Shown: piece after piece, positions 8,727-30,992 of the stretch | Layout: the number at the start of each line of letters is the position of its first letter | Numbering within the stretch: position 1 is the stretch's first letter | Assembly: GCA_000091165.1 (NCBI GenBank) | Contig: FP565575.1 | Span: 2,640,001 to 2,672,000, forward strand | DNA from: Candidatus Methylomirabilis oxygeniifera | GTDB lineage: Bacteria > Methylomirabilota > Methylomirabilia > Methylomirabilales > Methylomirabilaceae | DNA: 32,000 nucleotides | Reading direction: 5' to 3' | The notes under the pieces: generated by a model | Database searches by the model: none | Seen by the model: only the letters and a program-made list of their open reading frames with translations | What the model was told of the DNA's origin: nothing | Program-made: the position numbers and the translations under genes

Positions 8727-8745
8727 GACAGACCAGGTATGCACG

Positions 8746-9547: not shown

Positions 9548-9665
9548 TACCTCTATTCCAAATTTGGCTATTCGTCGTACGCTTGATGTGCATGAGGCAA
9601 GGTTGCGCGGTAGGCGCTGCGAGTGGCGCGATCCCAAGGGACATTGTTTGAGGAGGCGAAAGCAA

Positions 9666-11556: not shown

Positions 11557-11680
11557 TAGCCCCCACCCTCCTTCGCGGCTACAGTGATACCCGGCAGGAC
11601 CAAGAGTGTCGACGTCGATTTTATGTGTGAGCCGTTACCCTACCAGAACGGACGCAGAAGTCAATACGTGTTCGGGGTTG

Positions 11681-11708
11681 TTGTTGGGCGACTCCGCTGT
11701 GCTATACT
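11681..11708 (+). promoter_or_regulatory. Sigma70-like promoter candidate (TTGTTG-16-TATACT)
   Basis: TTGTTG at 11681-11686 and TATACT at 11703-11708, ~150 nt upstream of the metallophosphoesterase ATG. Confidence 0.3.
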
Positions 11709-11856
11709 GATCTTAGCGTATGAACAGTCTCGGCAGAACAATACGTTTCGTCCACCCCGAGCCTACCGAAAGGGCGGAGGGCAGACAAGAGGTTGTCGGA
11801 CATGCTCCTCGAGGAAAAAATGGGGAGCTTGTCGCTGTGCATGGCTTCGCAGCAGG

Positions 11857-12870
11857 ATGGCAAGGCTGATGAACGGGGTCTTCCGGGTCGCCCACCTCTC
11901 TGATCTCCATCTCACTTCACTGGTCGACGTCACAATCCGCGATCTCCTGAACAAGCGCGCGCTCGGTTACCTGTCCTGGCGCCTTCGGCGCCGTCACGAG
12001 CACGTACCCGCAATCCTGGATGCCCTGCGTCACGACTTGAGCGGGCTGACCCCGGACCATATCGTCATCACGGGCGATCTGACCCATATCGGCCTCCCGA
12101 GTGAATTTCAACAGGCCCAACAATGGCTGGAGACGCTTGGTGCGCCGACCGACGTGACCATTATTCCGGGCAACCATGATGCCTACGTCCGCGCTCCGTG
12201 GGACGATACCTTCGCCTTATGGACGCCCTACATGACCTCTGATCCGGGATCACAGACCGGGGGCCAGCAAGCGCCCGGCGAGTCATTCTTTCCAAGTGTA
12301 CGTGTGCGCGGGCATGTCGTACTGATTGGGGCAACCTCTGCGCGTCCATCCGCTCCGTTTTTCGCTACGGGAAGCCTTGGGACCGCACAGATGGCCAGAC
12401 TTGGCGATCTCCTCGATCTGACCCGCCGACAGGGCCTGTTCAGAATCCTGCTCATCCACCATCCTCCTCTGGCGGCCATAGTCCAATGGCGGAAACGACT
12501 CACCGATGGGGCCGCGTTGATCAGCCTTCTCGCGCGACACGGTGTCGAGATGATTATACACGGACACGCTCATCGCTCTTACGTGGGACATATTCCGTCG
12601 GCGCACGGTGAGATGTCCGTGATCGGGGTCCCCTCTGCTTCTGCGCGCGGGGCAAATCCGGAACGGCGCGCAGCGTACCATGTCTACGAGGTGCGTCCGT
12701 TGTCTCACGGATGGGAGGTTCGGACGTCGGTTCGCAACTACTCCCTGAACGACCGTTGTTTTGTTGCGGGAACGCAGCGAACAACACGGATGCCCGGTTC
12801 GGTCACGGACTTACTGCACACGACGATACACCCACACCGTCACGCCGCCCAGCACGGCCAGCGGGCTTAA
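11857..12870 (+). CDS. Calcineurin-like metallophosphoesterase
   Basis: 337 aa from ATG 11857. The full motif set is present: AHLSDLHL, ITGDLTH, IPGNHD, LIHHPP, IHGHAH. The upstream part of the track ORF (11584-11856) is R/C-rich and unlikely to be coding. Confidence 0.8.
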   Translation: MARLMNGVFRVAHLSDLHLTSLVDVTIRDLLNKRALGYLSWRLRRRHEHVPAILDALRHDLSGLTPDHIVITGDLTHIGLPSEFQQAQQWLETLGAPTDVTIIPGNHDAYVRAPWDDTFALWTPYMTSDPGSQTGGQQAPGESFFPSVRVRGHVVLIGATSARPSAPFFATGSLGTAQMARLGDLLDLTRRQGLFRILLIHHPPLAAIVQWRKRLTDGAALISLLARHGVEMIIHGHAHRSYVGHIPSAHGEMSVIGVPSASARGANPERRAAYHVYEVRPLSHGWEVRTSVRNYSLNDRCFVAGTQRTTRMPGSVTDLLHTTIHPHRHAAQHGQRA

Positions 12871-15084: not shown

Positions 15085-15804
15085 ATGAGGTGTATCATAT
15101 TGAGTGCAGGTCAAGGCCGACGCCTGCTCCCGCTGACGGCGGAGGTTCCGAAATGCGCTCTTCAGATCGGGGGCCAATCGATCGTCGAGCGGCAAATCAC
15201 CCAGTTGATGAAGTGCGGCATCGACCAAGTGACTGTCATCGTGGGTTTCGGGGCCGACAAGGTGGAGCACATCATACGCAGTCATTTCCGGCCGGACCAG
15301 GCGACAACCCTGTATAATCCCTTTTTTGCCGTGAGCGATAATCTGGCCAGTTGCTGGCTGGCCCGTCACCTGATGACCGAGGACTTTATTCTGCTGAACG
15401 GCGATACCCTGTTCGAGCCGGCTATTCTTCAATCTCTCCTGGATACGCCGCTTGAGCCGATCACACTCGTCATAGACCGTAAACCGGCGTATGACGATGA
15501 CGATATGAAGGTGATGGTAGAAGAACGTCAAGCGCTCAGAATCGGGAAGACCTTGAGTCCGGAACAGTCTCATGGAGAGTCGATCGGTATGACGCTGTTC
15601 CGCGGAAGCGGGCCGAACCTCTTCTCCGACGCTATTGAGCGTGCGGTGCGAAAACCCGACGCCCTGACGTGGTGGTATCTCTCGGTCATTAACGAACTGG
15701 CGCAGACAGGTCTGGTCTGGACCTGTCCCGTCGAGGGTCTGAAGTGGGCCGAAGTGGACTGTCTCGCCGACCTTGAGTATGCCAGAAAACTGGCCGTCTT
15801 GTGA
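15085..15804 (+). CDS. LicC/IPCT-like sugar- or alcohol-phosphate cytidylyl(nucleotidyl)transferase
   Basis: 239 aa from ATG 15085 with a GGAGGAG SD at 15071-15077. It has the N-terminal signature IILSAGQGRRLLPLT..PKCAL and the C-terminal W.EVD...DL..A motif, as in LicC-type CTP:phospho-alcohol cytidylyltransferases. Confidence 0.8.
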   Translation: MRCIILSAGQGRRLLPLTAEVPKCALQIGGQSIVERQITQLMKCGIDQVTVIVGFGADKVEHIIRSHFRPDQATTLYNPFFAVSDNLASCWLARHLMTEDFILLNGDTLFEPAILQSLLDTPLEPITLVIDRKPAYDDDDMKVMVEERQALRIGKTLSPEQSHGESIGMTLFRGSGPNLFSDAIERAVRKPDALTWWYLSVINELAQTGLVWTCPVEGLKWAEVDCLADLEYARKLAVL

Positions 15805-15832: not shown

Positions 15833-16633
15833 TTATGAATTGTTGCTCCCGGCCACCGTCTGAGCCAACTCCCAATCACTGATCGTATCCACGTCCAGCG
15901 CAGCCTCAGGAAATGGGAGCATGATGACGTCGATCGAAAGGTTGAGGCGCCGCGAGAGCCCGGCGAGGGCCTGAGGAAGCGACAACCATCCGAAGACAAA
16001 CCTCAAGACCGACGTCCAGCCCAGCATCGAAATGAGTCGGACCGGTTTCTTGCGCAGGCCTTCGACCCGGCTCCAGAACTGTATCAGCGAACGGCCTCGT
16101 GCGGTCAACACCGCATACAGGTTACATCCGCAGACCCCACCGTCCTGGAACTTGAGTACGGTACGCCGCATCGTCGGGTAAGCGGTCGCGACCAGATCGT
16201 GTGCGGCCAATCCGACTACGACATCGGCATTGCCGGCCCGCGCCGCCGAACAAAAGTAGTCGATGACCCGGGCGTTGAGGAGGGCATGGTCCGCCGTCAC
16301 CAGCAGAACCGGATGGTCCTGGGGTAACGACTGCATGACGGTGTATGCGCTGACGCTGGGCGTCGCATACGCCTCGTGCCATGCGACCGCCTCGGACACG
16401 ACCAGACCGCGAAGCTCGTTGTTCATCTCCACTGCCTGCCACTGAGGCCCGCACAGGATACGATCTCCGATCGCTTGCGCCTCAGCCAGGGCGCCCAGTA
16501 CGCGGAGGACCATGGGGACGCCTCCAACAGGAACCAGCGCCTTGCACTGGACTCCCGCTGCGCGAGCCACCGGGTCGTCAGGCGCACGGTCCCCGGCAAG
16601 CACAATCGCGGTAAACGGCTGACTATGACTCAT
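15833..16633 (-). CDS. MobA-like (NTP_transf_3) nucleotidyltransferase
   Basis: 266 aa. The N-terminus AIVLAGDRAPDDPVARAAGVQCKALVPVGGVPMV and the mid-protein LLVTADHALL resemble the GT-A fold MobA-like NTP transferase family. Its ATG overlaps the upstream gene's stop as ATGA. Confidence 0.65.
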   Translation of the reverse strand: MSHSQPFTAIVLAGDRAPDDPVARAAGVQCKALVPVGGVPMVLRVLGALAEAQAIGDRILCGPQWQAVEMNNELRGLVVSEAVAWHEAYATPSVSAYTVMQSLPQDHPVLLVTADHALLNARVIDYFCSAARAGNADVVVGLAAHDLVATAYPTMRRTVLKFQDGGVCGCNLYAVLTARGRSLIQFWSRVEGLRKKPVRLISMLGWTSVLRFVFGWLSLPQALAGLSRRLNLSIDVIMLPFPEAALDVDTISDWELAQTVAGSNNS

Positions 16634-17832
16634 TGCAATGCCTTTTCATAGATCCGGTAGCGCTTATACGGTACCCCCCCTATGGTGACCAGCATATTTC
16701 GCATCGGCATGTTGTCCTCCAGGATCCAGGACAGCTCAACCTCTCGGACTCCGCGCCTGATTTCATATTCGCGCACCGCATCGATGAGCATGAAGGCCAG
16801 CGCCGCCCCCATCGCGCCTCCTTGAAAAGACTTACGTACGCCCATTAGAGCGACGCGGGCCGTAGTCGGACGCCGAACCTTGAGCCGCCACAAGAGCTTG
16901 AGCCAGCCGAACGGCAACAAACGTCCATCAAGATCGCGTATCGCTTCATTGAGATTCGGAAAGGCCACGATCATGCCGACGGGCGCCCCGTCGATTTCCG
17001 CAATTTGTACGCACTCATCCTCAACTAATAGTCGCAAGCTGTTCCCCAGATCCTGGAACTCCTCCTCCGTGAAGGGAATGAAGCCCCAGTTTTCAGACCA
17101 CGCGTCCTCGTAGATCTCTTTAAGAATGCGGAGTTCTTCTTTCATTGATGATCTGCGCAACGGCCTGATTCGGACATAGCCGGCAGCTTTCTTCACAACG
17201 GTCCGCATGAGCGCAGGGGGCGTAAAATCGGCAGCCACACGGTAGGCCAGCAGGTCTTTCGAGCCCTGGTATCCCTCGGCGATGATCCGATCGGCATAAT
17301 AGGGGCGGGCATGACCCATCATAATCATGGGCGGCGTCTCGTACCCCTCCACGAGCAACCCGCACTCCTGGTTGATTGAGAGGTTGAATGGACCTCGGAT
17401 GCGTAACATCCCATGGTCGCGCAGCCATGTTTCCGCCGTACTCAACAAGGCGTGAAACGTTTCCGCGTCGTCCTCAGCTTCAAGCAGACCGAAAAAACCG
17501 GTGGCATCCCGATACTGCGCCTCATGCAGCGCGTCAATTTGGGCGCTGATTCGACCGATCGGCTTGGTCCCGCGGTAGGCGAGCCAGAAACAGGAGCGCG
17601 CGTGCGCGAAGTAGGGGTTACGCGGAGAGAACTGCTCCCGACGCTCGATCAGCAAGGGGGGAATCCACGCGGGATCGTCGGCATAGACCGACCACGGGAG
17701 ACGAATAAATCGGTGAAGATCCCGCGATCTGTTTATCGGTACAATGCGTACGGATTCACGAGTGGCTTGTATGGCAGGGGGTGTATCTCCAGGCAGGGTT
17801 GTGGAGTTCCGATCGGCCACTACGCCACCCAT
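16630..17832 (-). CDS. Large GNAT-like N-acyltransferase (candidate bacterial ceramide synthase)
   Basis: 400 aa from ATG 17832. The conserved-looking body starts at VRIVPINRSRDLHRFIRLPWSVY. The C-terminal acyl-CoA N-acyltransferase-like core is ..APVGMIVAFPN...VALMGVRKSFQGGAMGAALAF...ELSWILEDNMPMRN. The function call is an inference from context. Confidence 0.7.
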   Translation of the reverse strand: MGGVVADRNSTTLPGDTPPAIQATRESVRIVPINRSRDLHRFIRLPWSVYADDPAWIPPLLIERREQFSPRNPYFAHARSCFWLAYRGTKPIGRISAQIDALHEAQYRDATGFFGLLEAEDDAETFHALLSTAETWLRDHGMLRIRGPFNLSINQECGLLVEGYETPPMIMMGHARPYYADRIIAEGYQGSKDLLAYRVAADFTPPALMRTVVKKAAGYVRIRPLRRSSMKEELRILKEIYEDAWSENWGFIPFTEEEFQDLGNSLRLLVEDECVQIAEIDGAPVGMIVAFPNLNEAIRDLDGRLLPFGWLKLLWRLKVRRPTTARVALMGVRKSFQGGAMGAALAFMLIDAVREYEIRRGVREVELSWILEDNMPMRNMLVTIGGVPYKRYRIYEKALQ

Positions 17833-17888
17833 GCGGGAATCGATCTGCTCGCTTTTAACAAATCGTACAGTCCCCTTTCGTTTTTTTG

Positions 17889-17917
17889 TTGCACAAAACC
17901 GCTCAGTTTTGTATATA
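17889..17917 (+). promoter_or_regulatory. Weak sigma70-like promoter candidate (TTGCAC-17-TATATA) in the divergent intergenic region
   Basis: TTGCAC at 17889-17894 and TATATA at 17912-17917 (TATAAT at 17914-17919). The AT-rich core could act as a -10 element in either orientation. Firing rightward, it would leave a ~400-nt leader before ATG 18320. Confidence 0.25.
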
Positions 17918-18319
17918 ATACGCGCTGGCCTTTGGCAGTGACGGCGGTAGACCGGGCAGCTACCTGAGATGGACACTATTATGCACGTTTAGCCATGGCG
18001 TTCAACACATTAAATTGGTTTTATGAGACGGTATGTCTGCCATCCTCGTGCGCGTAGTGAGTGCAGACGAGTATCGCAACGGCGATGTACTGTTGTACAC
18101 CTCAATACGTCAGCTCCCTCAGAAAGGCGTGCGGCGCTGGCGATCTGCCGCCGGTCGTTTTATGCGGGCCGCTCAGCAGGTGGGCTTACCGCCTGCAGTC
18201 GTTACGAAGAGATTGAGCCTGTTCGGTTCCTCTTTAGCCAGTACGTAACAGACCTTTCCGGCGCTGAGAGGTTGGGTTATCAGTCAACTTCGTTTTGTGT
18301 ATAGGGGGGTGTAGGGGGA

Positions 18320-20146: not shown

Positions 20147-21078
20147 CGGGAGCGACCGGATTTATTGGAAGCGCCCTGGCTCGAAGGCTGACAAAGGAAG
20201 GATGGCAGGTACGCGCGCTACACCGTTCACCAACCCCGCCGGCATACCTGACGGGCATCTCGCTGGAGTGGGTACGGGGGACGCTCGATGATCGCGATAG
20301 CCTTGAAGGCCTGGTGGGCGACGCGGATGTTGTGATCCATTGCGCCGGGGCCCTGCGCGGTATTACCGAGACAGACTTTTACCCGGTCAATGTTGAGGCA
20401 GTCTCACGGCTGGCCTCTATCGCTGCGAGCCGCAGTCCTGCCCCCCGATTTCTCCTGATCTCATCCCTGGCAGCTCGAGAGCCCGGATTATCACCCTACG
20501 CGGCCAGCAAGCGGATGGGGGAGATCGCCCTGTCGAAAGCGGGTGACCGGCTGCTGTGGACCGCGCTTCGCCCTCCAGCGGTCTATGGTCCAGGTGACCG
20601 CGCATTGCTTCCCTTGCTTCGCCTGATGTGGCATGGGATTGCCCCCATACCTGGGCGCCAAGACGCCAGATTCTCCTTACTCTACGTGGAAGATCTGGCG
20701 GAAGCCGCGGTGAAATGGCTCGCCGGCGACGTCCCGGAGAGATGTGCATTTGAGTTGGATGATGGACATCCTCAGGGATATACGTGGCGCGAGGTGACGG
20801 AGACCTTCGAACGGCTCAGGGGAAGATGGGTGGTTCGTATTCACGTTCCCGAACTGATGTTGAAACTGACTGCCGGGCTTAACAAGATGGCGGCTTCCGT
20901 GATAGGATATTCCCCGATGTTGACCCCCGGCAAAGTACGGGAGTTCAGGCACCCGAACTGGATCTGCGATAACGCTCCGTTTCGCCGGGTCGTCGACTGG
21001 ACGCCGACGGTGGAGCTGGAAGAGGGGCTGCGGCTGACGCTTGGCCTCCAGGGTGGTAAACTGACAACTAGAAACTGA
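20125..21078 (+). CDS. NAD(P)-dependent epimerase/dehydratase-family (extended SDR) reductase, candidate ceramide reductase CerR
   Basis: 317 aa with the Rossmann motif LTGATGFIGSALARRL and the catalytic Y...K in YAASKRMGE. It overlaps the ligase gene by 22 nt. Confidence 0.8.
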   Translation: MRGVIALTGATGFIGSALARRLTKEGWQVRALHRSPTPPAYLTGISLEWVRGTLDDRDSLEGLVGDADVVIHCAGALRGITETDFYPVNVEAVSRLASIAASRSPAPRFLLISSLAAREPGLSPYAASKRMGEIALSKAGDRLLWTALRPPAVYGPGDRALLPLLRLMWHGIAPIPGRQDARFSLLYVEDLAEAAVKWLAGDVPERCAFELDDGHPQGYTWREVTETFERLRGRWVVRIHVPELMLKLTAGLNKMAASVIGYSPMLTPGKVREFRHPNWICDNAPFRRVVDWTPTVELEEGLRLTLGLQGGKLTTRN

Positions 21079-21111: not shown

Positions 21112-21360
21112 ATGACCCACTACGAAACGATACTTCCACAGCTCTATGAGATCTTGAAGCCGTTCACGCAGGAAGGCCAGGCTCTATCCGATGAGACGGA
21201 GCTCGTAGCCGATCTCGACCTCGATTCGATGAAGGTCATGGAGATCCTGCTTGAGGTGGAGGAGCGGTTCGACATCTCAATCCCCTTAAATGTCATCCCG
21301 GACGTCCGAACCATTAGAGATTTTGCCCGCCAGATCGAGCAATTGACGGAGCGGAGGTGA
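21112..21360 (+). CDS. Acyl carrier protein
   Basis: 82 aa and acidic. The phosphopantetheine attachment motif is DLDLDSMKVMEIL. Confidence 0.9.
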   Translation: MTHYETILPQLYEILKPFTQEGQALSDETELVADLDLDSMKVMEILLEVEERFDISIPLNVIPDVRTIRDFARQIEQLTERR

Positions 21361-22547
21361 CAGTGCTTCTGGAGAAGTTCCGACCACTCGCCGACGCCCG
21401 TGAGGCGTTGACACAATTAAGCCAAGATCCCTTTCGGGTGACGATTGAACGAATTCTGTCGCCGACGGAGGCCCTCGTCAATAGTCGTCCAATGATTCTG
21501 GCCGGAACGAACAACTACCTCGGTTTGACGTTCGATCCTGAGTGCATAGAAGCAGCAGTGCAAGCGGTGCGGGAACAAGGAACAGGTACGACAGGATCCA
21601 GAATGGCAAACGGCAGCTTCAGCGGACATCTTGCATTGGAGAAAGAGTTGGCAGAATTTTTTGGGCGCCGGTGGTGTGACGTATTCTCAACCGGCTATCT
21701 GGCCAACTTGGGCGTGATAGCGGCGCTCACCGGGCCTGGCGACGTGATCCTGATCGATGCCGATTGCCATGCGAGTATTTACGATGGATGCCGGATGAGC
21801 GGGGCGGAGATTATTCGATTTCGTCACAACGACGTTGCCGACCTCTATAAGCGCCTCGCGCGTTTGAAGGAGCGAAGCACGAACACGCTGATCATTGTGG
21901 AGGGTCTCTACAGCATGCTCGGCGATCGGGCGGCGCTGGCGGAGATTGCGGCCGCAAAACGCGAGTTCGGCGCGTATCTGCTGGTCGACGAGGCCCATTC
22001 GCTTGGCGTTTTGGGGGAGCGGGGCCGTGGGCTGGCCGAGGAGGCCGGCGTCGAAGACAGCATCGACTTTATCGTCGGAACGTTCAGTAAGAGCCTGGGC
22101 GCGACCGGCGGGTTCTGCGTCTCGGATCATCCTGAGATTGACCTGGTCAGATATGTCAGCCGTCCGTACATCTTCACCGCGTCGCCTTGTCCATCAGTTA
22201 TCGCCTCCACAAGAGTCGCCTTGCACAAGCTTCGGACTCATCCGGAGCTGCGCGTGCGACTCTGGAACAATGCGCGGCAGTTGTATGACTCGTTGAAAGG
22301 ATTGGGATTCAGGCTGGGCCCGGACCCCAGTCCGATTATTGCGGCCCGATTCAGCCAGAAAGACGAGACGATCGCTTTCTGGAACGGTCTCCTCGATCAA
22401 GGCATCTACGTCAACATGATATTGCCGCCGGCCGCTCCCGACGGTGGAAGCCTGCTCCGATGTAGCGTGAGCGCGGCGCATACACCGGATCAGATGGACC
22501 GCATTTGCCAAGCCTTTGCGTCCGTCAAGGCGGCTCTCCCCTCTTAA
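21357..22547 (+). CDS. spt: Alpha-oxoamine synthase, serine palmitoyltransferase-like (PLP-dependent)
   Basis: 396 aa. Its GTG start overlaps the ACP stop (GTGA). It has NNYLGL, the PLP-lysine motif GTFSKSLGATGG, and VDEAHSLGVLG. The Spt versus BioF/Kbl assignment rests on context. Confidence 0.8.
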   Translation: MTVLLEKFRPLADAREALTQLSQDPFRVTIERILSPTEALVNSRPMILAGTNNYLGLTFDPECIEAAVQAVREQGTGTTGSRMANGSFSGHLALEKELAEFFGRRWCDVFSTGYLANLGVIAALTGPGDVILIDADCHASIYDGCRMSGAEIIRFRHNDVADLYKRLARLKERSTNTLIIVEGLYSMLGDRAALAEIAAAKREFGAYLLVDEAHSLGVLGERGRGLAEEAGVEDSIDFIVGTFSKSLGATGGFCVSDHPEIDLVRYVSRPYIFTASPCPSVIASTRVALHKLRTHPELRVRLWNNARQLYDSLKGLGFRLGPDPSPIIAARFSQKDETIAFWNGLLDQGIYVNMILPPAAPDGGSLLRCSVSAAHTPDQMDRICQAFASVKAALPS

Positions 22548-22641: not shown

Positions 22642-23583
22642 ATGTACTGGTGGACACCTCTGCGCACACGCTCCGCGTTCAAGCGGTTGGTCCGCGAGCT
22701 GGATCCGGACATCGCCCTCACCCTTGTCGACGTTGGCTCGGCCGGTGGACTGAAGGATCGGTGGCGGCTTCTGGAAGGGCGGTTGCACAGCTATTGCTTC
22801 GATCCGCGCGAGGATGCTTTGCCCAGAGAGGAGTCTGATAGGACTGTGCTGCCATTCGCGGTGGGTCGCACGCAGGGTACCGCGGATTTCTACCGTACCC
22901 ACTTCGGAAACATGAGCTCCATGCTTCGACCCAATGCGGATACCCTGTACAGATTTTACAATCGCGAGTTTAAGTTCGAGGTAGTATCCGTCGAGAAACT
23001 GATGATTCAGCCTCTCGATAACGTTATTCCAGGGTCCGAGATCGATGCCCTGAAAATAGATGCGCAAGGCGGCGAACTGGAGATTCTTCTTGGAGCGCAG
23101 AGGCTGCTGGACTCCGGTCTGTTGCTGGCTGAAGTTGAGGTGTCCTTCATCGAGCGCTATATGGCCCAGCCGCTGTTCGGAGATGTTGCGGCCTTCATGC
23201 GCTCACACGGCTTCGACCTTCTCGATCTCTATCGGTTGCGGCACTACTACCGCACCAACCGCCGCGGCCTGCGAAAGCATCAGATGATTCCCGATTCGCA
23301 GTCCGGCCAACTCTCGCATGCCGACGCCATCTTCTTTCTGAGCGACGAGGCATTTCTGTCATGGCTCGATCGACTGGCTGTCGTCGGCAAGTCGAGTTTT
23401 TTGGTGAAGGCGATTCTTCTGCTGTTGATCTACGGGAAGTTCGATCGGGCGCTGCAGCTTTTTGAGGAGCACCAGACCTTGTTGTCTGAATCGTCGCGGA
23501 GGTCGCTTGCGCTTTTTTTCGACCAGCTTCCGCTGTCCGATCGCCGCTCCGCCACATCGCGAAACAAGGGGTTTCACGGGTAA
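22642..23583 (+). CDS. FkbM-family methyltransferase
   Basis: 313 aa with VDVGSAGG (AdoMet motif I) and IDALKIDAQGGELEILLGA, both typical of Methyltransf_21/FkbM. Confidence 0.8.
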   Translation: MYWWTPLRTRSAFKRLVRELDPDIALTLVDVGSAGGLKDRWRLLEGRLHSYCFDPREDALPREESDRTVLPFAVGRTQGTADFYRTHFGNMSSMLRPNADTLYRFYNREFKFEVVSVEKLMIQPLDNVIPGSEIDALKIDAQGGELEILLGAQRLLDSGLLLAEVEVSFIERYMAQPLFGDVAAFMRSHGFDLLDLYRLRHYYRTNRRGLRKHQMIPDSQSGQLSHADAIFFLSDEAFLSWLDRLAVVGKSSFLVKAILLLLIYGKFDRALQLFEEHQTLLSESSRRSLALFFDQLPLSDRRSATSRNKGFHG

Positions 23584-23873
23584 GTGACAGATGCAGAAAG
23601 CGCAGCGTGGTCGAGAAACCGGCCAGCCCAGGCCGTAAGTTATTATTCTTTGATGAGCACAAGCTCGCAACTCTGCTCGCGAATGCCGGCGCTGGAGCAT
23701 AATCATTCCCGCAGTGTAGGCTCCCATCGCGTAAAATCGGCCTAGGTTCGGAAGAGCTACCCGCAGTGACGATACCACGGAGGCAGCATAGCAGCATCGT
23801 AACAATGTTGCAGCAACGTTGGCCCCGGAGGCCTTGCGTTTAGCCGCGTCAGTTCAGACAGGTGTGTGTTGCT

Positions 23874-25628
23874 ATGCGGTTTTTGATCACCATTATTCGG
23901 AAGTATCCCCGCCGAAGCGCGCTGACGATGGTCTGCCTGCTGTTTGCGAGCGTTGCAGAGGGGGTCGGGCTCCTCATGCTGCTGCCCGTGCTCAGCGTGG
24001 CGACCGACAATCAGACCCGGGACACCGGTTCTCACCTGTTCGGAACGGAGCAGTTTCTGATGCAGGCGTTATCAGTCGTGGGGCTGACGCCGACGGTCGG
24101 CACGTTGCTGATTCTTATCGTCCTCTGTGTGGCGGTTAAATCGGCCTTCACCCTGTTGGCGAAAATTCAGGTCGGATACACTGTGACGCACGTCGCCACC
24201 GGTTTGCGGCTTTCTCTGCTGCAAACCCTGCTGGCTACACGGTGGGAGTATTACGTACGGCAACCGGTCGGGAGCTTAGCCAACGCGGTAGGCACTGAGG
24301 CGATGCGGGCGGCACTGGCGTATCTTGAAGGCGCCAAAGGCATCACCTTATTCGTTGAAGCCATCGTCTATGCAGGTGTGGCCTTCGTTGTTGCAGGGAA
24401 GGCGACCTTGACGTTTCTGATTCCAGGAGTATTGATCCTCTACGGTCTCAGCTATCTCGTTCGTATGGCGCATCAGGCGGGAACCCGCCAGACCAGATTA
24501 TTGAAATCCCTTGTGGCCGGCTTGACGGATAGCCTCCAATCCATTAAACCACTCAAGGCAATGGCGCGGGAAGAGCTGATCGGTCCATCGCTTCAGTCCA
24601 GCACCAGGCGCTTGAACCGGGCGGTCCGGCGAGACGTGCTGAGTACGGAGGCCCTGAGTTCCTCTCAGGATCTCGGGCTGGCGATCGTCATTGCTGTCGG
24701 GTTATACCTGGCTTTGAGTCGGTGGAATATGCCCCTGAATGCCGTCATGGTGATGGTCCTTCTTCTTGCTCGAATGCTGACCTGTCTTGCCAAGACGCAA
24801 CGGCAATACCAAAAAATGCGAACCCTTGAAAGCGCCTTCTGGTCATTGCGGGCTGCGATCGACGGCGCGAACCGTGATCGCGAAACGGAACCCGGAGGCG
24901 CGTCTCCCAGCCTCGAAAGGTCTCTTCGCCTGGACAAGGTCAGCTTCGGATATGACAAGCAATGGGTGCTTCGGGATGCGTCGCTGACCATTCCTGCGGG
25001 ATCATTCACTGTCATCATAGGGCCTTCAGGGGCCGGCAAGACGACGGTTGCCGATCTGTTGACGGGCCTGTTGCGCCCGCAGCAAGGCTGCGTCTGGATC
25101 GACGATCTGCCGTTAGACCGGATTGATTTGAGGCAGTGGCGGCGGATGATCGGGTACGTGCCGCAAGAGCCTTTCCTCCTTCACGACACCGTGCTGCAGA
25201 ACGTGACGCTTGGCGATCCCGGTCTGAACGAGGCCGATGCCGAGGCGGCACTGCGTGCCGCCGGCGCCTGGGACTTTGTGACGGCACAACCGTCCGGGAT
25301 CCACAGCTCGGTCGGAGAACGCGGCACCGCACTTTCCGGAGGCCAGCGGCAACGCATTGCGATCGCCAGGGCGTTGGTGCATCGGCCGAAGCTGCTGATC
25401 CTGGATGAGGTGACCAGCGCGCTTGATCAGGAGAATACGGCGACGATTTGCCGAACGCTGCGCGGTCTTCGTGGTCGACTGACCATCGTGGCGATCTCAC
25501 ACGAGTCTGCCGTGGTAGAGAGCGGCGACAGGGTCTATCGGATACACAAGGGCGAAGCGTCTTTAGTCACCAACGGCTGCGATTCGGATGTGGTCTTCGG
25601 TGGATCGGTGAAACAATCTCAAAGGTAG
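23874..25628 (+). CDS. ABC exporter, fused TMD-NBD (MsbA-like lipid/polar-lipid exporter)
   Basis: 584 aa from ATG 23874 (GTG 23862 is an alternative). A six-TM N-terminal domain is followed by Walker A GPSGAGKTT, signature LSGGQRQRIAIARAL and Walker B LLILDEVTSALD. Confidence 0.9.
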   Translation: MRFLITIIRKYPRRSALTMVCLLFASVAEGVGLLMLLPVLSVATDNQTRDTGSHLFGTEQFLMQALSVVGLTPTVGTLLILIVLCVAVKSAFTLLAKIQVGYTVTHVATGLRLSLLQTLLATRWEYYVRQPVGSLANAVGTEAMRAALAYLEGAKGITLFVEAIVYAGVAFVVAGKATLTFLIPGVLILYGLSYLVRMAHQAGTRQTRLLKSLVAGLTDSLQSIKPLKAMAREELIGPSLQSSTRRLNRAVRRDVLSTEALSSSQDLGLAIVIAVGLYLALSRWNMPLNAVMVMVLLLARMLTCLAKTQRQYQKMRTLESAFWSLRAAIDGANRDRETEPGGASPSLERSLRLDKVSFGYDKQWVLRDASLTIPAGSFTVIIGPSGAGKTTVADLLTGLLRPQQGCVWIDDLPLDRIDLRQWRRMIGYVPQEPFLLHDTVLQNVTLGDPGLNEADAEAALRAAGAWDFVTAQPSGIHSSVGERGTALSGGQRQRIAIARALVHRPKLLILDEVTSALDQENTATICRTLRGLRGRLTIVAISHESAVVESGDRVYRIHKGEASLVTNGCDSDVVFGGSVKQSQR

Positions 25629-25682: not shown

Positions 25683-25711
25683 TTGACTAAACCGACGCGA
25701 GCATATAGTAT
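25683..25711 (+). promoter_or_regulatory. Sigma70-like promoter candidate (TTGACT-17-TAGTAT)
   Basis: TTGACT at 25683-25688 and TAGTAT at 25706-25711 (TATAGT at 25704-25709). It lies in the 184-nt gap between the ABC exporter and the CDP-alcohol phosphotransferase gene. Confidence 0.35.
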
Positions 25712-25812: not shown

Positions 25813-27018
25813 ATGACCGTATACGCCCACATACTCGGAGAGGCTCCAGCCACGCTATGGGGGCTTTCATCCAGAGAGCGCTACCGTCGTGTACTGGCGC
25901 CGGTCGGTGTCACCGCGATTGCGGATGATCTCTCCTCGTTGCGTCCGGACGATTCGGTGTTGATTGTTCGAGGGGATTATCTCTTGGACAGCCGCGTCCT
26001 CCAGGGCTTGACTGAGTCCTTACACGTCATGATTGAGGCGCCGGCCGGGCCATCGCGTGCGCTTATCGTAGCTCACGTGCCGGCCAATCTGGCAATGGAG
26101 GCGAGGGCGGTTCTCTCCCTGGAAAAGGGTGCGGCACTCCCGCCATCCGTTCGTATCGAAAAGCTTGAAGACCAACTGGTCTCATTCGATAGGCGGTTGC
26201 GCAAAGCGGAGCCACCCTTTGCGGAACCGATCAGGGCCGATACGAAACGGGCGTTGGAGGAGCGCCTATTTTCCAGTTCGTATAAAGGCGTGACCGATCT
26301 CGTCACGAAGTGGCTGTGGCCTTCGCCTGCCAAATGGGCCGTACATCTGTGCGTAGCCGCCGGGCTGAGACCCAACCATGTGACCGCGGTCAGTGTGCTG
26401 TTAGTCATAGCGGCTGCGATCCTTTTTGCGAAAGGTCTCTACGGGTGGGGTCTTGCCGCCGGATGGTTCATGACCTTTCTTGATACGGTGGATGGCAAGC
26501 TTGCTCGGGTGACGGTCACCAGCACCAGATTTGGGCACCTGCTTGACCACGTGTTGGATCTGGTACATCCGCCCTTCTGGTACCTGCTGTGGGGATTCGG
26601 ACTGGAGTCATTCGCCCCTGGCATTCCGTGGCTGACCCTGCGTGTGGTGATATGGGCGATTTTCATTGGATACATTGGCGGACGTCTTGTCGAGGGGATA
26701 TTCAGAAAGTGGCTTGCCGGTTTTGTCATCTTCTGCTGGCGTCCTTTTGACTCGTACTTCCGATTGGTAACGGCCAGGCGCAACCCGAATATGATTCTGC
26801 TCACCGCAAGCCTCATCTTCAGCAGGCCGGACCTGGGATTAGTGGCGGTTGCCGAGTGGACAGTGCTGTCGACGCTTGTGCTCCTGCTCCGCCTCGGCAT
26901 TGCCTTCTATGCGCGCACGCATGGACCGTTGCGATCCTGGCTGGCCGACGATACCGGGCGTGCCGGCAACGGCTCGCTCGCCGTACGGCTGTTTGTCCAT
27001 CAAGTTCCCACTCCGTAA
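25813..27018 (+). CDS. CDP-alcohol phosphotransferase with N-terminal extra domain (DIPPS-like architecture)
   Basis: 401 aa from ATG 25813 (GTG 25795 is an alternative). A perfect CDP-OH-P signature D-x2-DG-x2-AR-x8-G-x3-D-x3-D (DTVDGKLARVTVTSTRFGHLLDHVLD) is encoded at 26482-26559. It is preceded by ~155 soluble residues and then YKGVTDLVTKWLW...RPNHVT. Confidence 0.85.
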   Translation: MTVYAHILGEAPATLWGLSSRERYRRVLAPVGVTAIADDLSSLRPDDSVLIVRGDYLLDSRVLQGLTESLHVMIEAPAGPSRALIVAHVPANLAMEARAVLSLEKGAALPPSVRIEKLEDQLVSFDRRLRKAEPPFAEPIRADTKRALEERLFSSSYKGVTDLVTKWLWPSPAKWAVHLCVAAGLRPNHVTAVSVLLVIAAAILFAKGLYGWGLAAGWFMTFLDTVDGKLARVTVTSTRFGHLLDHVLDLVHPPFWYLLWGFGLESFAPGIPWLTLRVVIWAIFIGYIGGRLVEGIFRKWLAGFVIFCWRPFDSYFRLVTARRNPNMILLTASLIFSRPDLGLVAVAEWTVLSTLVLLLRLGIAFYARTHGPLRSWLADDTGRAGNGSLAVRLFVHQVPTP

Positions 27019-27048
27019 GTCGGGAGTGGCAGAGGACGATTTCACGCT

Positions 27049-28095
27049 ATGTTGCAAGGTATGATGCCAGCGCACGGGAAGAGTGACGCGAGTCGTGCAT
27101 CCGGTGCGTGCCTGCCGTTGGACAAACACGGCACGAGGCGGGTCGGCGTGCTGATCAACCCGGAGAGCGGGACGAATCGAGAGGGTCTTCAGGCCCTCCT
27201 ACACGTCCTGGACCAGTATAAGCCGGTGATCCACCGGTATGTCGTCGGCCCGGCAAGTGTAGCCGGCGCTCTTGCGGCAATGGCTGCCCAGCGAGTGGAT
27301 GTCGTGGCTGTCTGCGGTGGGGATGGAACCGTCCAGGCTGTGTTGACTGCCCTGTTACACAACGGACCCTTTGCCGCATTGCCGTCCCTGGCGCTCATTG
27401 CAGGAGGGACCTCGAATATGACCGCTGCCGATGTCGGCGTAGTCGGCAAGCCGGCGCGGGCATTGCGGCGCCTGTTGGCATGGTCTGAGGGAAGGGGCCC
27501 GACGGGTCAGGTTGTGCGACGGGCGATCCTGCGAGTGGATGGCGGGGCGGACCGCGCGCCGCAGTTTGGGATGTTTTTCAGCGCGGCCGGCATCGTCGAC
27601 GTCACCCGCGCCCGATGGGCGACCCGTCGGCGGGCCAGATCGAAACCGATGCGCGGCGCCTTGGGGACGGCTGTTACGGTCAGCCGGTATCTGCTGGGTC
27701 TTGCGCTTGGACGTCGAGTTGTCGAACCGACTCCGATCTCGGTCCGCTTAGACGGTCGGTCACACAGTGCGAATAACTACCTCGCGCTGTTCATCACGAC
27801 CTTGGAACGGTTAAATCCCGGGATACGACCATACTGGGGCGAGGGACATGGTCCGCTCAGGTATACGGCGGTGGCCTATCAACCGCGGAACCTGCTGCTG
27901 GCTGCGCCTTCGCTTATCCGTGGCAGACGCAGCCGATACCTGACGCCGGAGTCCGGGTATGCGAGCGGGAATATCCATGAAGCCGTGTTGCAACTTCAGA
28001 CGGAATGCGCGCTTGACGGAGAACTACTCGGGAGCGCGACGCCGCGCCCACTCGCGGTAACTTGCGGAGGGGAGGTTAACTTTGTACGATTATGA
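27049..28095 (+). CDS. Lipid kinase of the DAGK-catalytic-domain family (YegS/BmrU/sphingosine-ceramide kinase-like)
   Basis: 348 aa with VGVLINPESG, VCGGDGTVQAV and IAGGTSNMTAADVG, the canonical DAGK_cat motifs. Confidence 0.8.
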   Translation: MLQGMMPAHGKSDASRASGACLPLDKHGTRRVGVLINPESGTNREGLQALLHVLDQYKPVIHRYVVGPASVAGALAAMAAQRVDVVAVCGGDGTVQAVLTALLHNGPFAALPSLALIAGGTSNMTAADVGVVGKPARALRRLLAWSEGRGPTGQVVRRAILRVDGGADRAPQFGMFFSAAGIVDVTRARWATRRRARSKPMRGALGTAVTVSRYLLGLALGRRVVEPTPISVRLDGRSHSANNYLALFITTLERLNPGIRPYWGEGHGPLRYTAVAYQPRNLLLAAPSLIRGRRSRYLTPESGYASGNIHEAVLQLQTECALDGELLGSATPRPLAVTCGGEVNFVRL

Positions 28096-29203
28096 AAAAA
28101 AAGCGGCGGTTGTCGCTCAGCAAGAGACTCCGGATTTTTCCCGCCGGGAGATCAAGAAGCTCGTTCACGATCTATTCACGCCCAAGCCGCTACTCTATTG
28201 GACCGATTTCCTGGTTACGGTGTCCATCGGGTACGGTTTTGCCGCAATCTACCTGACGGCGCCGGCCTTCTCGCTGCTTCAGATTGCCGCAATGTTGTTG
28301 TCCGGACTGGCGTTGTTTCGGGTCGGCATCTTCATTCATGAGCTTGTCCACAGGGAGGAACCCTCCATGATAGGATTTCATATCGCCTGGAATCTTCTTG
28401 TCGGGATGCCCCTGCTCATGCATTCATTTCTGTACAGGAATCACCTCGACCATCATCACCCACGCAAGTTCGGAACGCCCGCCGATGGTGAGTATCTACC
28501 CCTGGGCTCGGCTCCCCTTCGAGAAACTGCGTTGTATTTCGCACAAGTCCCGGTCCTGCCGATCATGGCCGCCTTCCGCTTTCTGATCCTCGTGCCGTTG
28601 TCGTTCCTGAATCCCCGTTGGCGAAGGTGGCTCCTCGAGTGTCGGTCATCCTATGCGATCGATCCCTACTATAGGCGCACCATCCCATCAACGGAACGTC
28701 TGGATCTCTGGGCTGCGCTTGACCTGCTCGGCTTTGTCTGGGTGGTCGGTGCTCTTACCTTGATTCTCAGCGGTGTGATCGCATGGACGACGATCGGGCT
28801 CTTGTATTGCCTGGCCATCTGGACGATCGGCCTGAACTGGATTCGTACTCTTGCTGCGCACCGGTTTATGAATGAGGGCGGCAACATGACGTATGAGGAG
28901 CAGGTTGAAGACTCCCTCACCATCGGGGGGCATTCCCTCCTGTCGTATCTCCTGTTTCCGATCGGTTTGCGGTACCACACCATTCATCACCTGTTCCCGC
29001 TGATGCCCTATCATGCGATGGGCGAGGCGCATCGCCGCCTGATGAATGGGCTTCCCGAAGACTCGGTGTACAGAAAGACGATCGTCCCCGGTTTGGTGGC
29101 TGTGCTCCGAGATCTCCTGCGTCACGCCAGTCTGGCAGGAAAGGCCGGCCGCAATCCGATGCAGGTGTGGCGCCATCCGGAAACGGCGACGTATGCGCGA
29201 TAA
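28082..29203 (+). CDS. Membrane fatty-acid desaturase-family enzyme (candidate sphingolipid desaturase/hydroxylase)
   Basis: 373 aa. The TTG start at 28082 overlaps the kinase gene by 14 nt, and there is no in-frame ATG before residue 71. Three His boxes are present (HELVH, HLDHHH, HTIHHLFP) with flanking TM segments. Confidence 0.8.
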   Translation: MYDYEKKAAVVAQQETPDFSRREIKKLVHDLFTPKPLLYWTDFLVTVSIGYGFAAIYLTAPAFSLLQIAAMLLSGLALFRVGIFIHELVHREEPSMIGFHIAWNLLVGMPLLMHSFLYRNHLDHHHPRKFGTPADGEYLPLGSAPLRETALYFAQVPVLPIMAAFRFLILVPLSFLNPRWRRWLLECRSSYAIDPYYRRTIPSTERLDLWAALDLLGFVWVVGALTLILSGVIAWTTIGLLYCLAIWTIGLNWIRTLAAHRFMNEGGNMTYEEQVEDSLTIGGHSLLSYLLFPIGLRYHTIHHLFPLMPYHAMGEAHRRLMNGLPEDSVYRKTIVPGLVAVLRDLLRHASLAGKAGRNPMQVWRHPETATYAR

Positions 29204-30155
29204 ACCGGCGGCGTGGACGCGGCTCACCTCTTTCATCGAACAGTATAGCGCGAGACCTGTGACGCCGGGGATTCGTGCGCTGGCCGACGCGCTTCTAAAG
29301 CAGTACGGCAACGGCGCTGCCGCAATACTCGCATACGGTTCCTGCTTTCGCAACCGGACGGATGAGGGGCTTGTCGACCTGTGCGTGCTGGTCGACAGCT
29401 ACCGGTCTCTCCCTGGAGCCGTATGGCAGCACTGGCTCTACCGGGTCCTACCTCCCACGGTATTTTATCTGGAGATCCCGCACAACGGCCGCCGGCTTCG
29501 GGCAAAATATATCGTGATCTCACGCGAAGATTTCGAGCGAGGCGTCTCGCCGCGCTGTTTCTATTCGTATCTCTGGGGTAGGTTCGCACAACCTGCGGGG
29601 GTACTGTATGCCAGAGACGAGCGAAACGCCCATCGGGTCTACAAGGCATTAGCCCAGGCCGTCGTCACATTTGTGGGTCGTGTCGTGCCGATTCTGCCGT
29701 CTATGTTCGATGCCCGCGATCTGTGGCAACAGGGGCTGCGCCTGAGCTATGGCACTGAATTGAGACCTGAGCGGACGGACGCCGTCGCGCGGCTGGTTGA
29801 CCACTCTTTTGATTACTATGAGCAGATCAGTCGCATCGGAATGGAGTGCGTGCAGTTCGATGTGCGACCGATCGACGAGGCTCGGACAACCAGATACCGT
29901 GCGGCAATCCCGGACTCGATCCGTTTCATTGCCGACCTTGCATGGCGCATTCGGAAAGTACACGGAAAAATACTGAACGTCCTGCGTCTGCTGAAAGGAC
30001 TATTCACGTTCAAGAGCGGCAGGGACTATATCCTGTGGAAGATCGAACGACATTCCGGCATGAAAGTAGAAGTGCCGCCGTTCTACGAGCGTTACCCATG
30101 GTTCGCAACGGCGTTGATCCTCGGAAGGCTCTATCGGCGCGGGGCGTTCCGTTAG
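29193..30155 (+). CDS. Tam41/Mmp37-like nucleotidyltransferase (putative lipid-phosphate cytidylyltransferase)
   Basis: 320 aa from ATG 29193, overlapping the desaturase stop by 11 nt. Collinear resemblances to Tam41, from memory of its motifs: AYGSCF (YGSGVF), VDLCVLVD (IDFI..V), VFYLEIPHNGRRLRAKYIVISREDF (VYFN....NG..IKYGVVS...L), YLWGRFAQP (YLAGRLQKP) and LSYGTELRPE (ISY.GD.RM.E). The coding call is strong. The family call is moderate. Confidence 0.55.
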   Translation: MRDKPAAWTRLTSFIEQYSARPVTPGIRALADALLKQYGNGAAAILAYGSCFRNRTDEGLVDLCVLVDSYRSLPGAVWQHWLYRVLPPTVFYLEIPHNGRRLRAKYIVISREDFERGVSPRCFYSYLWGRFAQPAGVLYARDERNAHRVYKALAQAVVTFVGRVVPILPSMFDARDLWQQGLRLSYGTELRPERTDAVARLVDHSFDYYEQISRIGMECVQFDVRPIDEARTTRYRAAIPDSIRFIADLAWRIRKVHGKILNVLRLLKGLFTFKSGRDYILWKIERHSGMKVEVPPFYERYPWFATALILGRLYRRGAFR

Positions 30156-30172: not shown

Positions 30173-30688
30173 ATGAATCGCGTACCGGCTATCTTATCCA
30201 GCCTTTTGCTCGCGTACCTGCTCTTACTGCCATGGAATGTGCAAGCCCTGATCGAAGCAACCGAGGGGGCATGCACCCGCACTTCCGCCGCCATCGATGT
30301 TCGAGTACAGGGGGTGAGGAGCGATCGCGGCAACATTATGTTCGTCCTGTACGGCGACAATCCAGACGATTTTCTGGTAAAAGGGAAGAGGATCTTTAAG
30401 CAACAGTTTGCCGCGAAGCGCGGAACCGTGGCGTTCTGCGTGATCGTCCAAAAGGCGGGCGCCTATGCCGCCAGTGTGTACCACGATGAAAACGGCAACA
30501 AGAAATTTGATAGGAACTGGATCGGAATACCCGCCGAGGGCGCCGGTTTCTCGAATAATCCCACGCTGCTGTTAGGCCCACCCAGCCATGCGCAAGCGGC
30601 GTTTCAGGTCTCGAACGGCCCCAAGCGCGTGGAGATCCAGCTCAATTATTCCATCGTATCCGGACGACAAAGCCCTAATCTGCCATAG
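30173..30688 (+). CDS. Exported DUF2141-family protein
   Basis: 171 aa from ATG 30173 with a signal peptide (MNRVPAILSSLLLAYLLLLPWNVQA). It has SDRGNIMFVLY..., YHDENGNKKFDRNWIGIPAEGAGFSNN and ..I.L, as in DUF2141. Confidence 0.7.
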   Translation: MNRVPAILSSLLLAYLLLLPWNVQALIEATEGACTRTSAAIDVRVQGVRSDRGNIMFVLYGDNPDDFLVKGKRIFKQQFAAKRGTVAFCVIVQKAGAYAASVYHDENGNKKFDRNWIGIPAEGAGFSNNPTLLLGPPSHAQAAFQVSNGPKRVEIQLNYSIVSGRQSPNLP

Positions 30689-30968: not shown

Positions 30969-30992
30969 GCGGGCCGCACGGCCCGCCTTTTT
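30969..30992 (+). terminator. Rho-independent terminator
   Basis: A 7-bp all-GC stem GCGGGCC (30969-30975) / GGCCCGC (30980-30986) with loop GCAC, then C and TTTTT (30988-30992). The T-run is present only on the + strand. Confidence 0.65.

Follow-up and report, generated by a model that had tools for sequence, protein, structure and literature searches.

A putative cpgA-cpgB-cpgC-type phosphosphingolipid head-group module with an inserted desaturase gene in Candidatus Methylomirabilis oxygeniifera

Four consecutive genes of Candidatus Methylomirabilis oxygeniifera were analysed within a stretch of 32,000 nucleotides (nt), referred to here as the window (GCA_000091165.1, contig FP565575.1, positions 2,640,001 to 2,672,000 of the forward strand; all coordinates below are window positions). 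According to the open reading frame (ORF) list and Pfam, the four genes are co-directional on the plus strand and fill positions 25813-30155. They encode a CpgA-like cytidine diphosphate (CDP)-alcohol phosphotransferase of 401 amino acids (aa) (25813..27018; PF01066, motif and fold), a CpgB-like lipid kinase of the DAGK_cat/LCB5 type (27049..28095, 348 aa; PF00781, GGDGT), a membrane di-iron desaturase or hydroxylase (28082..29203, 373 aa; PF00487, three His boxes) and a CpgC-like nucleotidyltransferase with a Tam41 fold (29193..30155, 320 aa; family profile and fold). The start of the phosphotransferase gene at 25813 was confirmed, since a Ca. Methylomirabilis database protein of 401 aa was 100% identical. 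The desaturase gene started with TTG at 28082, with a GGAGGGGAGG ribosome-binding site ahead of it, and overlapped the kinase gene, whose stop codon TGA lies at 28093-28095, by 14 nt. The Tam41-like gene started with ATG at 29193 and overlapped the desaturase gene (stop codon TAA at 29201-29203) by 11 nt. A start of the Tam41-like gene at an upstream ATG (29046) was discarded, since homologs of 320 aa covered 100% of the product that begins at 29193. The original prediction, made from the sequence alone, had placed the four genes back to back with overlaps of 14 and 11 nt, and the junction sequences bore this out. Its four family assignments also held, PF01066, PF00781 and PF00487 with scores above the cut-offs and Tam41 by family profile and fold. 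We consider it probable that the region represents, in Methylomirabilis, the cpgA-cpgB-cpgC head-group module of a Caulobacter-type anionic phosphosphingolipid pathway, to which a desaturase/hydroxylase gene has been added by insertion.

Ceramide phosphoglycerate (CPG) and ceramide diphosphoglycerate (CPG2) are products of the region CC_1152-CC_1168 of Caulobacter crescentus. CC_1160 (CpgB) has been purified and characterised as a ceramide kinase, whose in vitro activity on diacylglycerol (DAG) is similar to that on ceramide (PMC10331486). Ceramide-1-phosphate (C1P) was absent from a cpgB deletion mutant (PMC9393093), with unchanged levels of phosphatidate (PA). Deletion of cpgC (CC_1161) left C1P in place and abolished both CPG and CPG2, and deletion of cpgA (CC_1159, PF01066/PgsA-like) left CPG in place and abolished CPG2 alone (PMC9393093). 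CpgD (CC_1152) is a cytidine triphosphate (CTP):phosphoglycerate cytidylyltransferase, and CDP-glycerate has been proposed as the donor for CpgA (PMC12275187, PMC13228409). The CpgC step was described by its authors as proceeding "through a yet unidentified mechanism" (PMC12275187); no newer work on this mechanism was found in our literature search, and the authors call it unidentified as of 2025-2026. Homologs of CC_1161 from alpha-, beta-, gamma- and deltaproteobacteria possess the Tam41 InterPro domain IPR015222, and it was proposed in 2024 that CpgC makes ceramide in nucleoside diphosphate (NDP)-activated form (Olea-Ozuna et al., PMC11324152). The original prediction had a kinase and then a Tam41-like enzyme acting in turn on ceramide, in agreement with the phenotypes of the cpgB and cpgC deletions (PMC9393093). 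It had also presented the scheme as undescribed as far as was known, which does not stand: the genes have been published as Caulobacter CC_1152-CC_1168, or cpgABCD, and the NDP-ceramide proposal dates from 2024.

The window genes can be connected with those of Caulobacter through Nitrosomonas. Neut_1100-1106 of Nitrosomonas eutropha are orthologs of CC_1154, CC_1153, CC_1156/CC_1155, CC_1159, CC_1160 and CC_1161, with 25-41% identity between Neut_1104-1106 and CC_1159-1161 (PMC11324152, Table S2D). A Nitrosomonas locus in our comparison (L077) contained seven consecutive genes for a bacterial ceramide synthase (bCerS), a MobA-like transferase, LptF, LptG, a phosphotransferase, a kinase and a Tam41-like protein, which is the order of Neut_1100-1106. 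Each was matched by the corresponding window protein, the identity being 32% for the kinase and 38-43% for the phosphotransferase and the Tam41-like protein. In their described domains, the Caulobacter proteins fitted the window proteins one for one (IPR015222; PF01066 and a cytoplasmic domain at the N-terminus; PF00483/PF01128/PF12804; MobA/CofC-like; calcineurin-like). Among the best 120 matches to a profile of four alphaproteobacterial homologs, none was a named Caulobacter or Sphingomonas CpgC; those with names were Rhodospirillaceae-like.

The Tam41-like family proved to be large. A profile search against 1.84 billion cluster representatives yielded 1511 clusters at 50% identity (E ≤ 1e-3). 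A genome scan with one genome per species, seeded from alignment A1 (a broader alignment, A2, was too diverse), found relatives in the genomes of at least 596 species. The best 80 loci, from Nitrospirota, Desulfobacterota, Myxococcota and Alpha-, Beta- and Gammaproteobacteria, were compared with all window proteins by tblastn; the resulting co-occurrence figures refer to 10-kb neighbourhoods and ignore phylogeny. A kinase homolog lay upstream of the Tam41-like gene on the same strand at 73 of the 80 loci. At 70 of these the gap did not exceed 430 nt, and its median was about 27 nt. Because it is kept so often and at such short distance, this arrangement is not due to chance. A phosphotransferase homolog was present at 41 loci, and the metallophosphoesterase described below at 58, where it was mostly divergent from the phosphotransferase and kinase genes. 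The MobA-like transferase occurred at 44 loci, beside bCerS, whose homologs (40-74% identity) were found at 43. LptF/G were found at 41-46 loci, the LicC-like transferase at 30 and the ABC exporter at nine; an FkbM homolog was found at none of the 80. When all unassigned ORFs of these loci were clustered, no further gene conserved at more than ten loci emerged.

The kinase matched PF00781 (DAGK_cat) with E = 2.5e-16 and 59.9 bits, against a cut-off of 23.6. Its translation contained the GGDGT motif, as originally predicted, and no CxxxCxxC motif of the eukaryotic CERK type. A GGDG ATP-binding motif and the lack of CxxxCxxC have been used as criteria for CpgB-type ceramide kinases (PMC10331486). 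The window kinase is predicted from its sequence to be a ceramide kinase; by orthology and synteny, it would turn ceramide into C1P, as established biochemically for the Caulobacter ortholog. Alternatively, the kinase might phosphorylate DAG, and the Tam41-like enzyme might make CDP-DAG locally and independently of CdsA for use by the phosphotransferase, with no sphingolipid involved. This would fit with phosphatidate as the known substrate of Tam41 (PMC7018664), with the existence of a bacterial (Firmicutes) Tam41 structure (7ecd) and with the in vitro activity of CpgB on DAG (PMC10331486). However, the kinase/Tam41-like pair lies among or beside spt, bcerS, cerR and acyl carrier protein (ACP) genes across phyla, and nearly all genera that carry cpgB also have sphingolipid synthesis genes (PMC10331486). 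This glycerolipid pathway is already disfavoured by Caulobacter genetics, as loss of cpgB leaves the PA level unaltered and loss of cpgC removes CPG and keeps C1P. We consider it very improbable.

When scanned alone, the Tam41-like protein matched PF09139 (Tam41_Mmp37) with E = 0.013 and 15.3 bits, below the cut-off of 24 bits. Within an alignment of 38 family members, 11 matched PF09139 at E ≤ 1e-3 (best value 5.7e-13), and none of the 38 matched any other family. Two relatives (P0126 and P0137) scored 34-37 bits. The database contained 757 homologs, many of which, at about 50% identity, had a precomputed PF09139 match; another Methylomirabilis protein had 86% identity. In profile searches, Tam41 of Schizosaccharomyces pombe (SpTam41, 6ig2) was the best solved protein, with E = 9e-4 for a profile of 30 close sequences and 6.7e-6 for one of 38 diverse sequences. 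The profile alignment revealed a common set of residues, YGS...D...D/E, K-Y, RF-QP and SY...R...E. YGS was paired with YGS, D62 with D, D68 with E or D, K105-Y with K-Y, R130-F..P with RF..P, and Y186, R191 and E193 with Y, R and E. The residues YGS, D62, D/E68, K105-Y, R130-F, Y186, R191 and E193 were invariant in the 38 family members.

The AlphaFold model of the Tam41-like protein had a predicted local distance difference test (pLDDT) score of 86.6 and a predicted template modelling (pTM) score of 0.84. Its five best fold matches in the PDB were all Tam41 structures, over 285-301 columns, with E-values from 5.5e-10 (6ig4) to 1.3e-7 and target-normalised template modelling (TM) scores of 0.55-0.63, the Firmicutes Tam41 7ecd reaching 0.63. 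The next matches were aminoglycoside nucleotidyltransferases, with TM-scores of approximately 0.3. The match spanned the nucleotidyltransferase and the winged-helix domains of Tam41, which jointly form the CTP pocket (PMC7018664). Tam41 ends in a positively charged amphipathic helix that binds membranes. In the window protein, residues 241-315 were modelled as helices, and pLDDT values were 61-70 over the last 50 residues, an Arg/Lys-rich and strongly conserved part. The C-terminal third also contained a conserved LWKIERHSG motif outside the Tam41-aligned region, and the identity to Tam41 was approximately 15%. The product of 29193-30155 is Tam41-like at the family and fold level, and this evidence overrules the miss of the single sequence in Pfam. 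Of the two Pfam memberships expected from the original prediction, that of the kinase was obtained directly, and that of the Tam41-like protein failed for the single sequence and was recovered at the family level.

The Tam41-like protein is predicted to act on C1P, possibly as a CTP:C1P cytidylyltransferase. In Caulobacter, the position of this enzyme after the kinase was shown genetically. By analogy to Tam41, which converts PA and CTP into CDP-DAG, activation of C1P with CTP to CDP-ceramide would be the most likely chemistry. A glycerate-type alcohol would then displace cytidine monophosphate (CMP) from CDP-ceramide, yielding a ceramide-phospho-X lipid. It is also conceivable that the Tam41-fold protein acts on C1P and releases no CDP-ceramide, either because it uses another nucleoside triphosphate, giving an AMP-, GMP- or UMP-linked product, or because it couples C1P directly to glycerate or phosphoglycerate. 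Zik et al. read CpgC as adding glycerate to C1P (PMC9393093), and Olea-Ozuna et al. wrote only "NDP-activated". The low identity to Tam41 and the LWKIERHSG-containing C-terminal third would accommodate a different reaction, as would a conserved neighbourhood with no dedicated CDP-ceramide consumer. On the other hand, the nucleotidyltransferase signature and several invariant residues are common to this family and SpTam41, and the fold match takes in both domains of the CTP pocket. Furthermore, Olea-Ozuna et al. judged the esterification of unactivated C1P with glycerate to be energetically unfavourable. A reaction that bypasses CDP-ceramide thus appears quite unlikely to us.

The phosphotransferase matched PF01066 (CDP-OH_P_transf) with E = 4.5e-10 and 40.5 bits, against a cut-off of 22. 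It consists of an N-terminal cytoplasmic domain of approximately 160 aa followed by a transmembrane catalytic domain. The motif D-TV-DG-KL-AR-x8-G-x3-D-x3-D was perfect, as had been read before, and its residues D224, D227, G228, A231, R232, G241, D245 and D249 were invariant in 30 homologs. The AlphaFold model (pLDDT 77) had AF2299 as its best Foldseek match (4o6n, E = 2.8e-10, 383 columns); IPCT-DIPPS (4mnd, E = 4e-7) and phosphatidylinositol-phosphate (PIP) synthases were also matched. The N-terminal domain (25813-26300) was nucleotidyltransferase-like in fold and weakly matched RmlA, IPCT and PntC. It lacked the GxGxR cytidylyltransferase signature, and W16, R23, R26, D55, D59 and R61 were invariant. 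It is probably not catalytic and may be a ligand-binding or regulatory domain.

With regard to its role, the phosphotransferase most likely does not consume CDP-ceramide. It would probably extend the head group by moving a phospho-alcohol onto the lipid, with a soluble CDP-head group as donor that the LicC/IMPCT-like enzyme encoded at 15085-15804 makes. We favour a soluble donor because of the Caulobacter genetics, the biochemistry of CpgD, the co-occurrence with LicC-like genes and the likeness of the structure to AF2299 and IPCT-DIPPS. Co-occurrence was counted on the 51 loci whose upstream flank was complete: the LicC-like transferase was present at 28 of the 35 loci with a phosphotransferase and at none of the 16 without (Fisher p = 3e-8, not corrected for phylogeny). 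LptF/G varied in the same way (32 of 35 loci vs 1 of 16). This co-variation of phosphotransferase and LicC-like genes supports a place for CpgA in the CDP-head-group branch.

A linear pathway was implied by the original prediction, in which CDP-ceramide comes from the Tam41-like enzyme and the adjacent phosphotransferase joins this CDP-lipid with a soluble alcohol to ceramide-phospho-X in one step, just as PgsA, PssA and Pis use CDP-DAG. The gene order is compatible with it, as phosphotransferase, kinase and Tam41-like genes were contiguous in this order at 38 of the 80 loci. Moreover, three gammaproteobacterial loci (L044, L051 and L072) had a phosphotransferase and no detected kinase, and at two of these the phosphotransferase gene was directly followed by the Tam41-like gene (L044 8720-10945, L072 8672-10936). 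The two proteins were also found as a natural fusion (P0248, L081 2397-4670), in a cluster of 21 members of which one was labelled as a Lysobacterales metagenome-assembled genome; a LicC-like gene lay upstream of this fusion. The best NCBIfam matches of the phosphotransferase were archaetidylinositol-phosphate and PIP synthases, which use CDP-lipids, though these matches were far below the cut-offs. Against the linear pathway, the whole-protein fold was nearest to AF2299 and IPCT-DIPPS, and DIPPS uses a soluble CDP-alcohol. A kinase and Tam41 pair without a nearby phosphotransferase was found at 16 of the 51 loci, and the LicC-like gene co-varied with the phosphotransferase as described above. 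[quoted passage not shown] We therefore regard the linear pathway as unlikely, and the last step of the original prediction, from the Tam41-like enzyme to the adjacent phosphotransferase, is probably wrong. A second option raised there, a phosphotransferase supplied with a CDP-head group by the LicC-like enzyme, came closest to the current model, in which the acceptor would be ceramide-phosphoglycerate and not ceramide.

Two further fusions were found. In P0170 (L082 4390-6378), a DAGK_cat kinase was fused with the Tam41-like protein, and a separate phosphotransferase gene lay just upstream. In P0251 (L083 7364-9148), the partner was a MobA-like transferase, and the surrounding genes encoded ketoacyl-synthase and polyketide-cyclase proteins, not sphingolipid proteins. 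From this context, the Tam41-like family may also serve another lipid.

Several points weigh against the assignment of the four genes to a Caulobacter-type pathway with CDP-ceramide as an intermediate. The term CDP-ceramide was absent from the literature searched, no CDP-ceramide has ever been detected, and no CDP-ceramide-consuming enzyme was found among the conserved genes of the 80 loci. The fusion of phosphotransferase and Tam41-like protein, like the kinase-free adjacency of their genes at L044 and L072, may just as well reflect use of the Tam41-like enzyme's product by the phosphotransferase. The co-occurrence with the LicC-like gene is limited to 10-kb neighbourhoods and ignores phylogeny, and the Tam41-like sequence is below the curated Pfam cut-off when scanned alone. 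The proposed orthology to CpgA, CpgB and CpgC follows a two-step chain from the window to Nitrosomonas and from there to Caulobacter, together with domains and synteny. Finally, the literature search gave no report of sphingolipids in Methylomirabilis or its phylum, NC10, and the head group could be other than glycerate.

The desaturase sets the window apart from all but one of the compared loci. It matched PF00487 (FA_desaturase) with E = 5.9e-26 and 92.2 bits (cut-off 29.7) and contained the His boxes HELVH, HLDHH(H) and HTIHH. No relative in the PDB was detected by sequence, and NCBIfam gave a weak match to GntB only. A homolog at the same position was found at one of the 80 related loci (L003, Nitrospiraceae), and the gene is a lineage-specific insertion. 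Its placement suggests that the enzyme works on ceramide or C1P. Judging from this context, it presumably modifies the ceramide moiety, which it would desaturate or hydroxylate.

The gene set and the idea of CDP-ceramide were already in the literature, and the discovery is modest. The analysis adds confirmation of the Tam41-like enzyme at the fold level, the breadth of its family, the fusions and the co-occurrence pattern. The fusions of the Tam41-like protein with the kinase, the phosphotransferase and the MobA-like transferase are new, and the His-box enzyme, the FkbM-like protein, the ABC exporter and the DUF2141 protein are lineage-specific additions. The results place a pathway of the Caulobacter type for anionic phosphosphingolipids in Ca. 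Methylomirabilis, a methane oxidiser of the NC10 phylum, and reveal the kinase/Tam41-like pair as a widespread module of Nitrospirota, Desulfobacterota, Myxococcota and Proteobacteria. Caulobacter phosphosphingolipids can partly substitute for lipopolysaccharide and are the target of colistin and polymyxin. The conversion of C1P into CPG by CpgC, the counterpart of the Tam41-like enzyme, is the sole step of the pathway without known chemistry. A possible cytidylyltransferase activity on C1P finds concrete support in the fold, in the three fusions and in the residues that the family has in common with Tam41. A more far-reaching proposal, tentative though by no means improbable, is that the Tam41-fold protein, together with CpgC and the whole family of about 1500 clusters in at least 596 species, is a CTP:C1P cytidylyltransferase, and that the phosphotransferase uses CDP-ceramide where it is fused or adjacent. 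If true, this would make CDP-ceramide a genuine counterpart of CDP-DAG and the first liponucleotide among the sphingolipids.

The four genes form the 3' end of a sphingolipid island at approximately 11.6-30.7 kb of the window; the island is complete, and the sphingolipid context assumed in the original prediction was thereby corroborated. A fatty acyl-AMP ligase (18320-20146, +; NF006624, 762 bits), a short-chain dehydrogenase/reductase of CerR type (20125-21078, +; PF01370), an ACP (21112-21360, +; PF00550) and a serine palmitoyltransferase (spt; 21357-22547, +; NF047599, 632 bits, cut-off 500) are encoded in a row. An FkbM-family methyltransferase-like protein (22642-23583, +; PF05050, E = 2.5e-13) and an MsbA-type ABC exporter (23862-25628, +; PF00005, PF00664) follow, standing between spt and the head-group genes. 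The FkbM-like gene may confer a lineage-specific sphingolipid modification or be unrelated. Upstream and on the minus strand lies the GNAT-type, bCerS-like ceramide synthase, the CC_1154 counterpart (16630..17976; PF00583, E = 2.8e-8). Between the divergent bCerS and acyl-AMP ligase genes, an ORF of 93 aa (18023-18304) was rejected as probably non-coding: it is Arg/Cys-rich, had no Pfam match and had no homolog at the 80 loci.

The remaining genes of the island are candidates for head-group synthesis and export. A CpgD-like cytidylyltransferase of the COG1213/LicC/IMPCT type with a GQGRR...K...D signature (15085..15804, +; PF12804, PF00483) matched PntC (6pd1, E = 3.6e-11), IMPCT (4jd0, E = 8.8e-11) and LicC (1jyk) in the PDB; the top structural match of CpgD was likewise 4JD0 (PMC12275187). 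This enzyme is predicted to make the soluble CDP-head group, which is CDP-glycerate in Caulobacter. The MobA/CofC-like nucleotidyltransferase (15833..16633, -; PF12804, E = 2.3e-12), the counterpart of CC_1153, matched TTHA0179 (2dpw, E = 9.4e-17). Neither of these two additional nucleotidyltransferases matched a CpgD crystal structure in the PDB search. The counterpart of CC_1158 is a calcineurin-like metallophosphoesterase (11584..12870, +; PF00149, E = 3.4e-15), whose actual start probably lies close to 11857. Two LptF/LptG paralogs (12811-13941 and 13875-14945, -; PF03739, E = 6.6e-61 and 4.1e-71), the counterparts of CC_1155/CC_1156, are predicted to extract the sphingolipid from the inner membrane and transport it; a 2026 preprint attributes sphingolipid transport in Caulobacter to Lpt paralogs. 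From this context and the phenotypes of Caulobacter mutants, head-group processing and export would be completed by the MobA-like transferase, the metallophosphoesterase, the ABC exporter and LptF/G.

A consensus scan, which alone is not evidence of function, detected a sigma-70-like promoter match (TTGACT-17-TAGTAT; 25683..25711, +) where 184 nt separate the phosphotransferase gene from the ABC exporter gene. This site may serve the head-group operon as an internal promoter. A DUF2141 protein whose N-terminus resembles a signal peptide (30173..30688, +; PF09912, E = 1.1e-31) is encoded 17 nt past the stop codon of the Tam41-like gene, and a homolog was present in one alphaproteobacterial sphingolipid locus (L075 6022-6510). 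Judged by its spacing only, the DUF2141 gene is possibly the last gene of the operon. The same type of scan detected a strong terminator-like GC-rich hairpin followed by a T run downstream (30969..30986, +). Given the positions of the promoter match and the hairpin, the transcription unit may therefore take in the DUF2141 gene.

Other parts of the window contained genes outside the island. A type II restriction-modification pair was found at 112-1801, with an XhoI-type endonuclease (PF04555, E = 7.6e-92) overlapping an N6/N4 DNA methyltransferase (PF01555). A HEPN/MNT toxin-antitoxin module was found at 3251-3890, with an MNT-like nucleotidyltransferase (PF01909) overlapping a HepT-like RNase (PF01934). 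On the minus strand at 5081-9423, a CrtC-like lipocalin (PF07143 and PF17186) adjoined a MacB/FtsX-type ABC permease and ATPase. These lipocalin and MacB genes were separated from the sphingolipid island by an OmpA/Pal-like gene (9519-10220) and a CitMHS_2 transporter gene (10231-11556).

Among known systems, the Caulobacter cpg cluster (Zik 2022; Olea-Ozuna 2024; Dhakephalkar 2023, 2025) is the closest in content. Both contain the three head-group enzymes in identical order, a COG1213 cytidylyltransferase, a MobA/CofC-like protein, a calcineurin-like phosphoesterase, LptF/G, bCerS, spt, ACP, cerR and an acyl-ACP/AMP ligase. They can be distinguished by their hosts, Proteobacteria for the former and NC10/Methylomirabilota for the latter, and by the overlapping His-box desaturase gene put between the kinase and Tam41-like genes in the window. 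In place of the Wzx-like CC_1166 of Caulobacter, the window has an FkbM-like gene and an ABC exporter of the MsbA type, and no counterpart of the HIT protein (CC_1157), CC_1167 or LptC2 was recognised in it.

The Tam41-like protein shares with Tam41/Mmp37 (PF09139; 6ig2, 6ig4, 7ecd) the two-domain fold, the signature residues and a peripheral architecture unrelated to CdsA, and its basic C-terminus was modelled as helical, similar to that of Tam41. With approximately 15% identity to Tam41, its family is large, bacterial and tied to ceramide kinase rather than to phosphatidate metabolism. The substrate of Tam41 is phosphatidate, whereas C1P is the predicted substrate of the window protein. Similarly, the phosphotransferase resembles AF2299 and IPCT-DIPPS (4o6m, 4o6n, 4mnd) in its nucleotidyltransferase-like N-terminal domain, six-helix PF01066 core and identical motif, with 12-17% identity and without GxGxR in the N-terminal domain. 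Its predicted acceptor is a membrane sphingolipid, in contrast to the inositol phosphate acceptor of AF2299 and IPCT-DIPPS. A parallel can also be drawn with TagD/TarD and TagF of wall teichoic acid synthesis, as was done by the authors of the CpgD study (PMC12275187). There, CDP-glycerol is made and then polymerised onto a lipid-linked acceptor. In both systems, a cytidylyltransferase provides a soluble CDP-linked three-carbon head group, from which a phospho-alcohol is moved onto a membrane-anchored acceptor. The cytidylyltransferases (COG0615 in teichoic acid synthesis, COG1213 in the cpg system) and the transferases (TagF type vs PF01066) belong to unrelated families, the alcohols differ (glycerol vs glycerate), and the acceptor of the cpg system is a ceramide.

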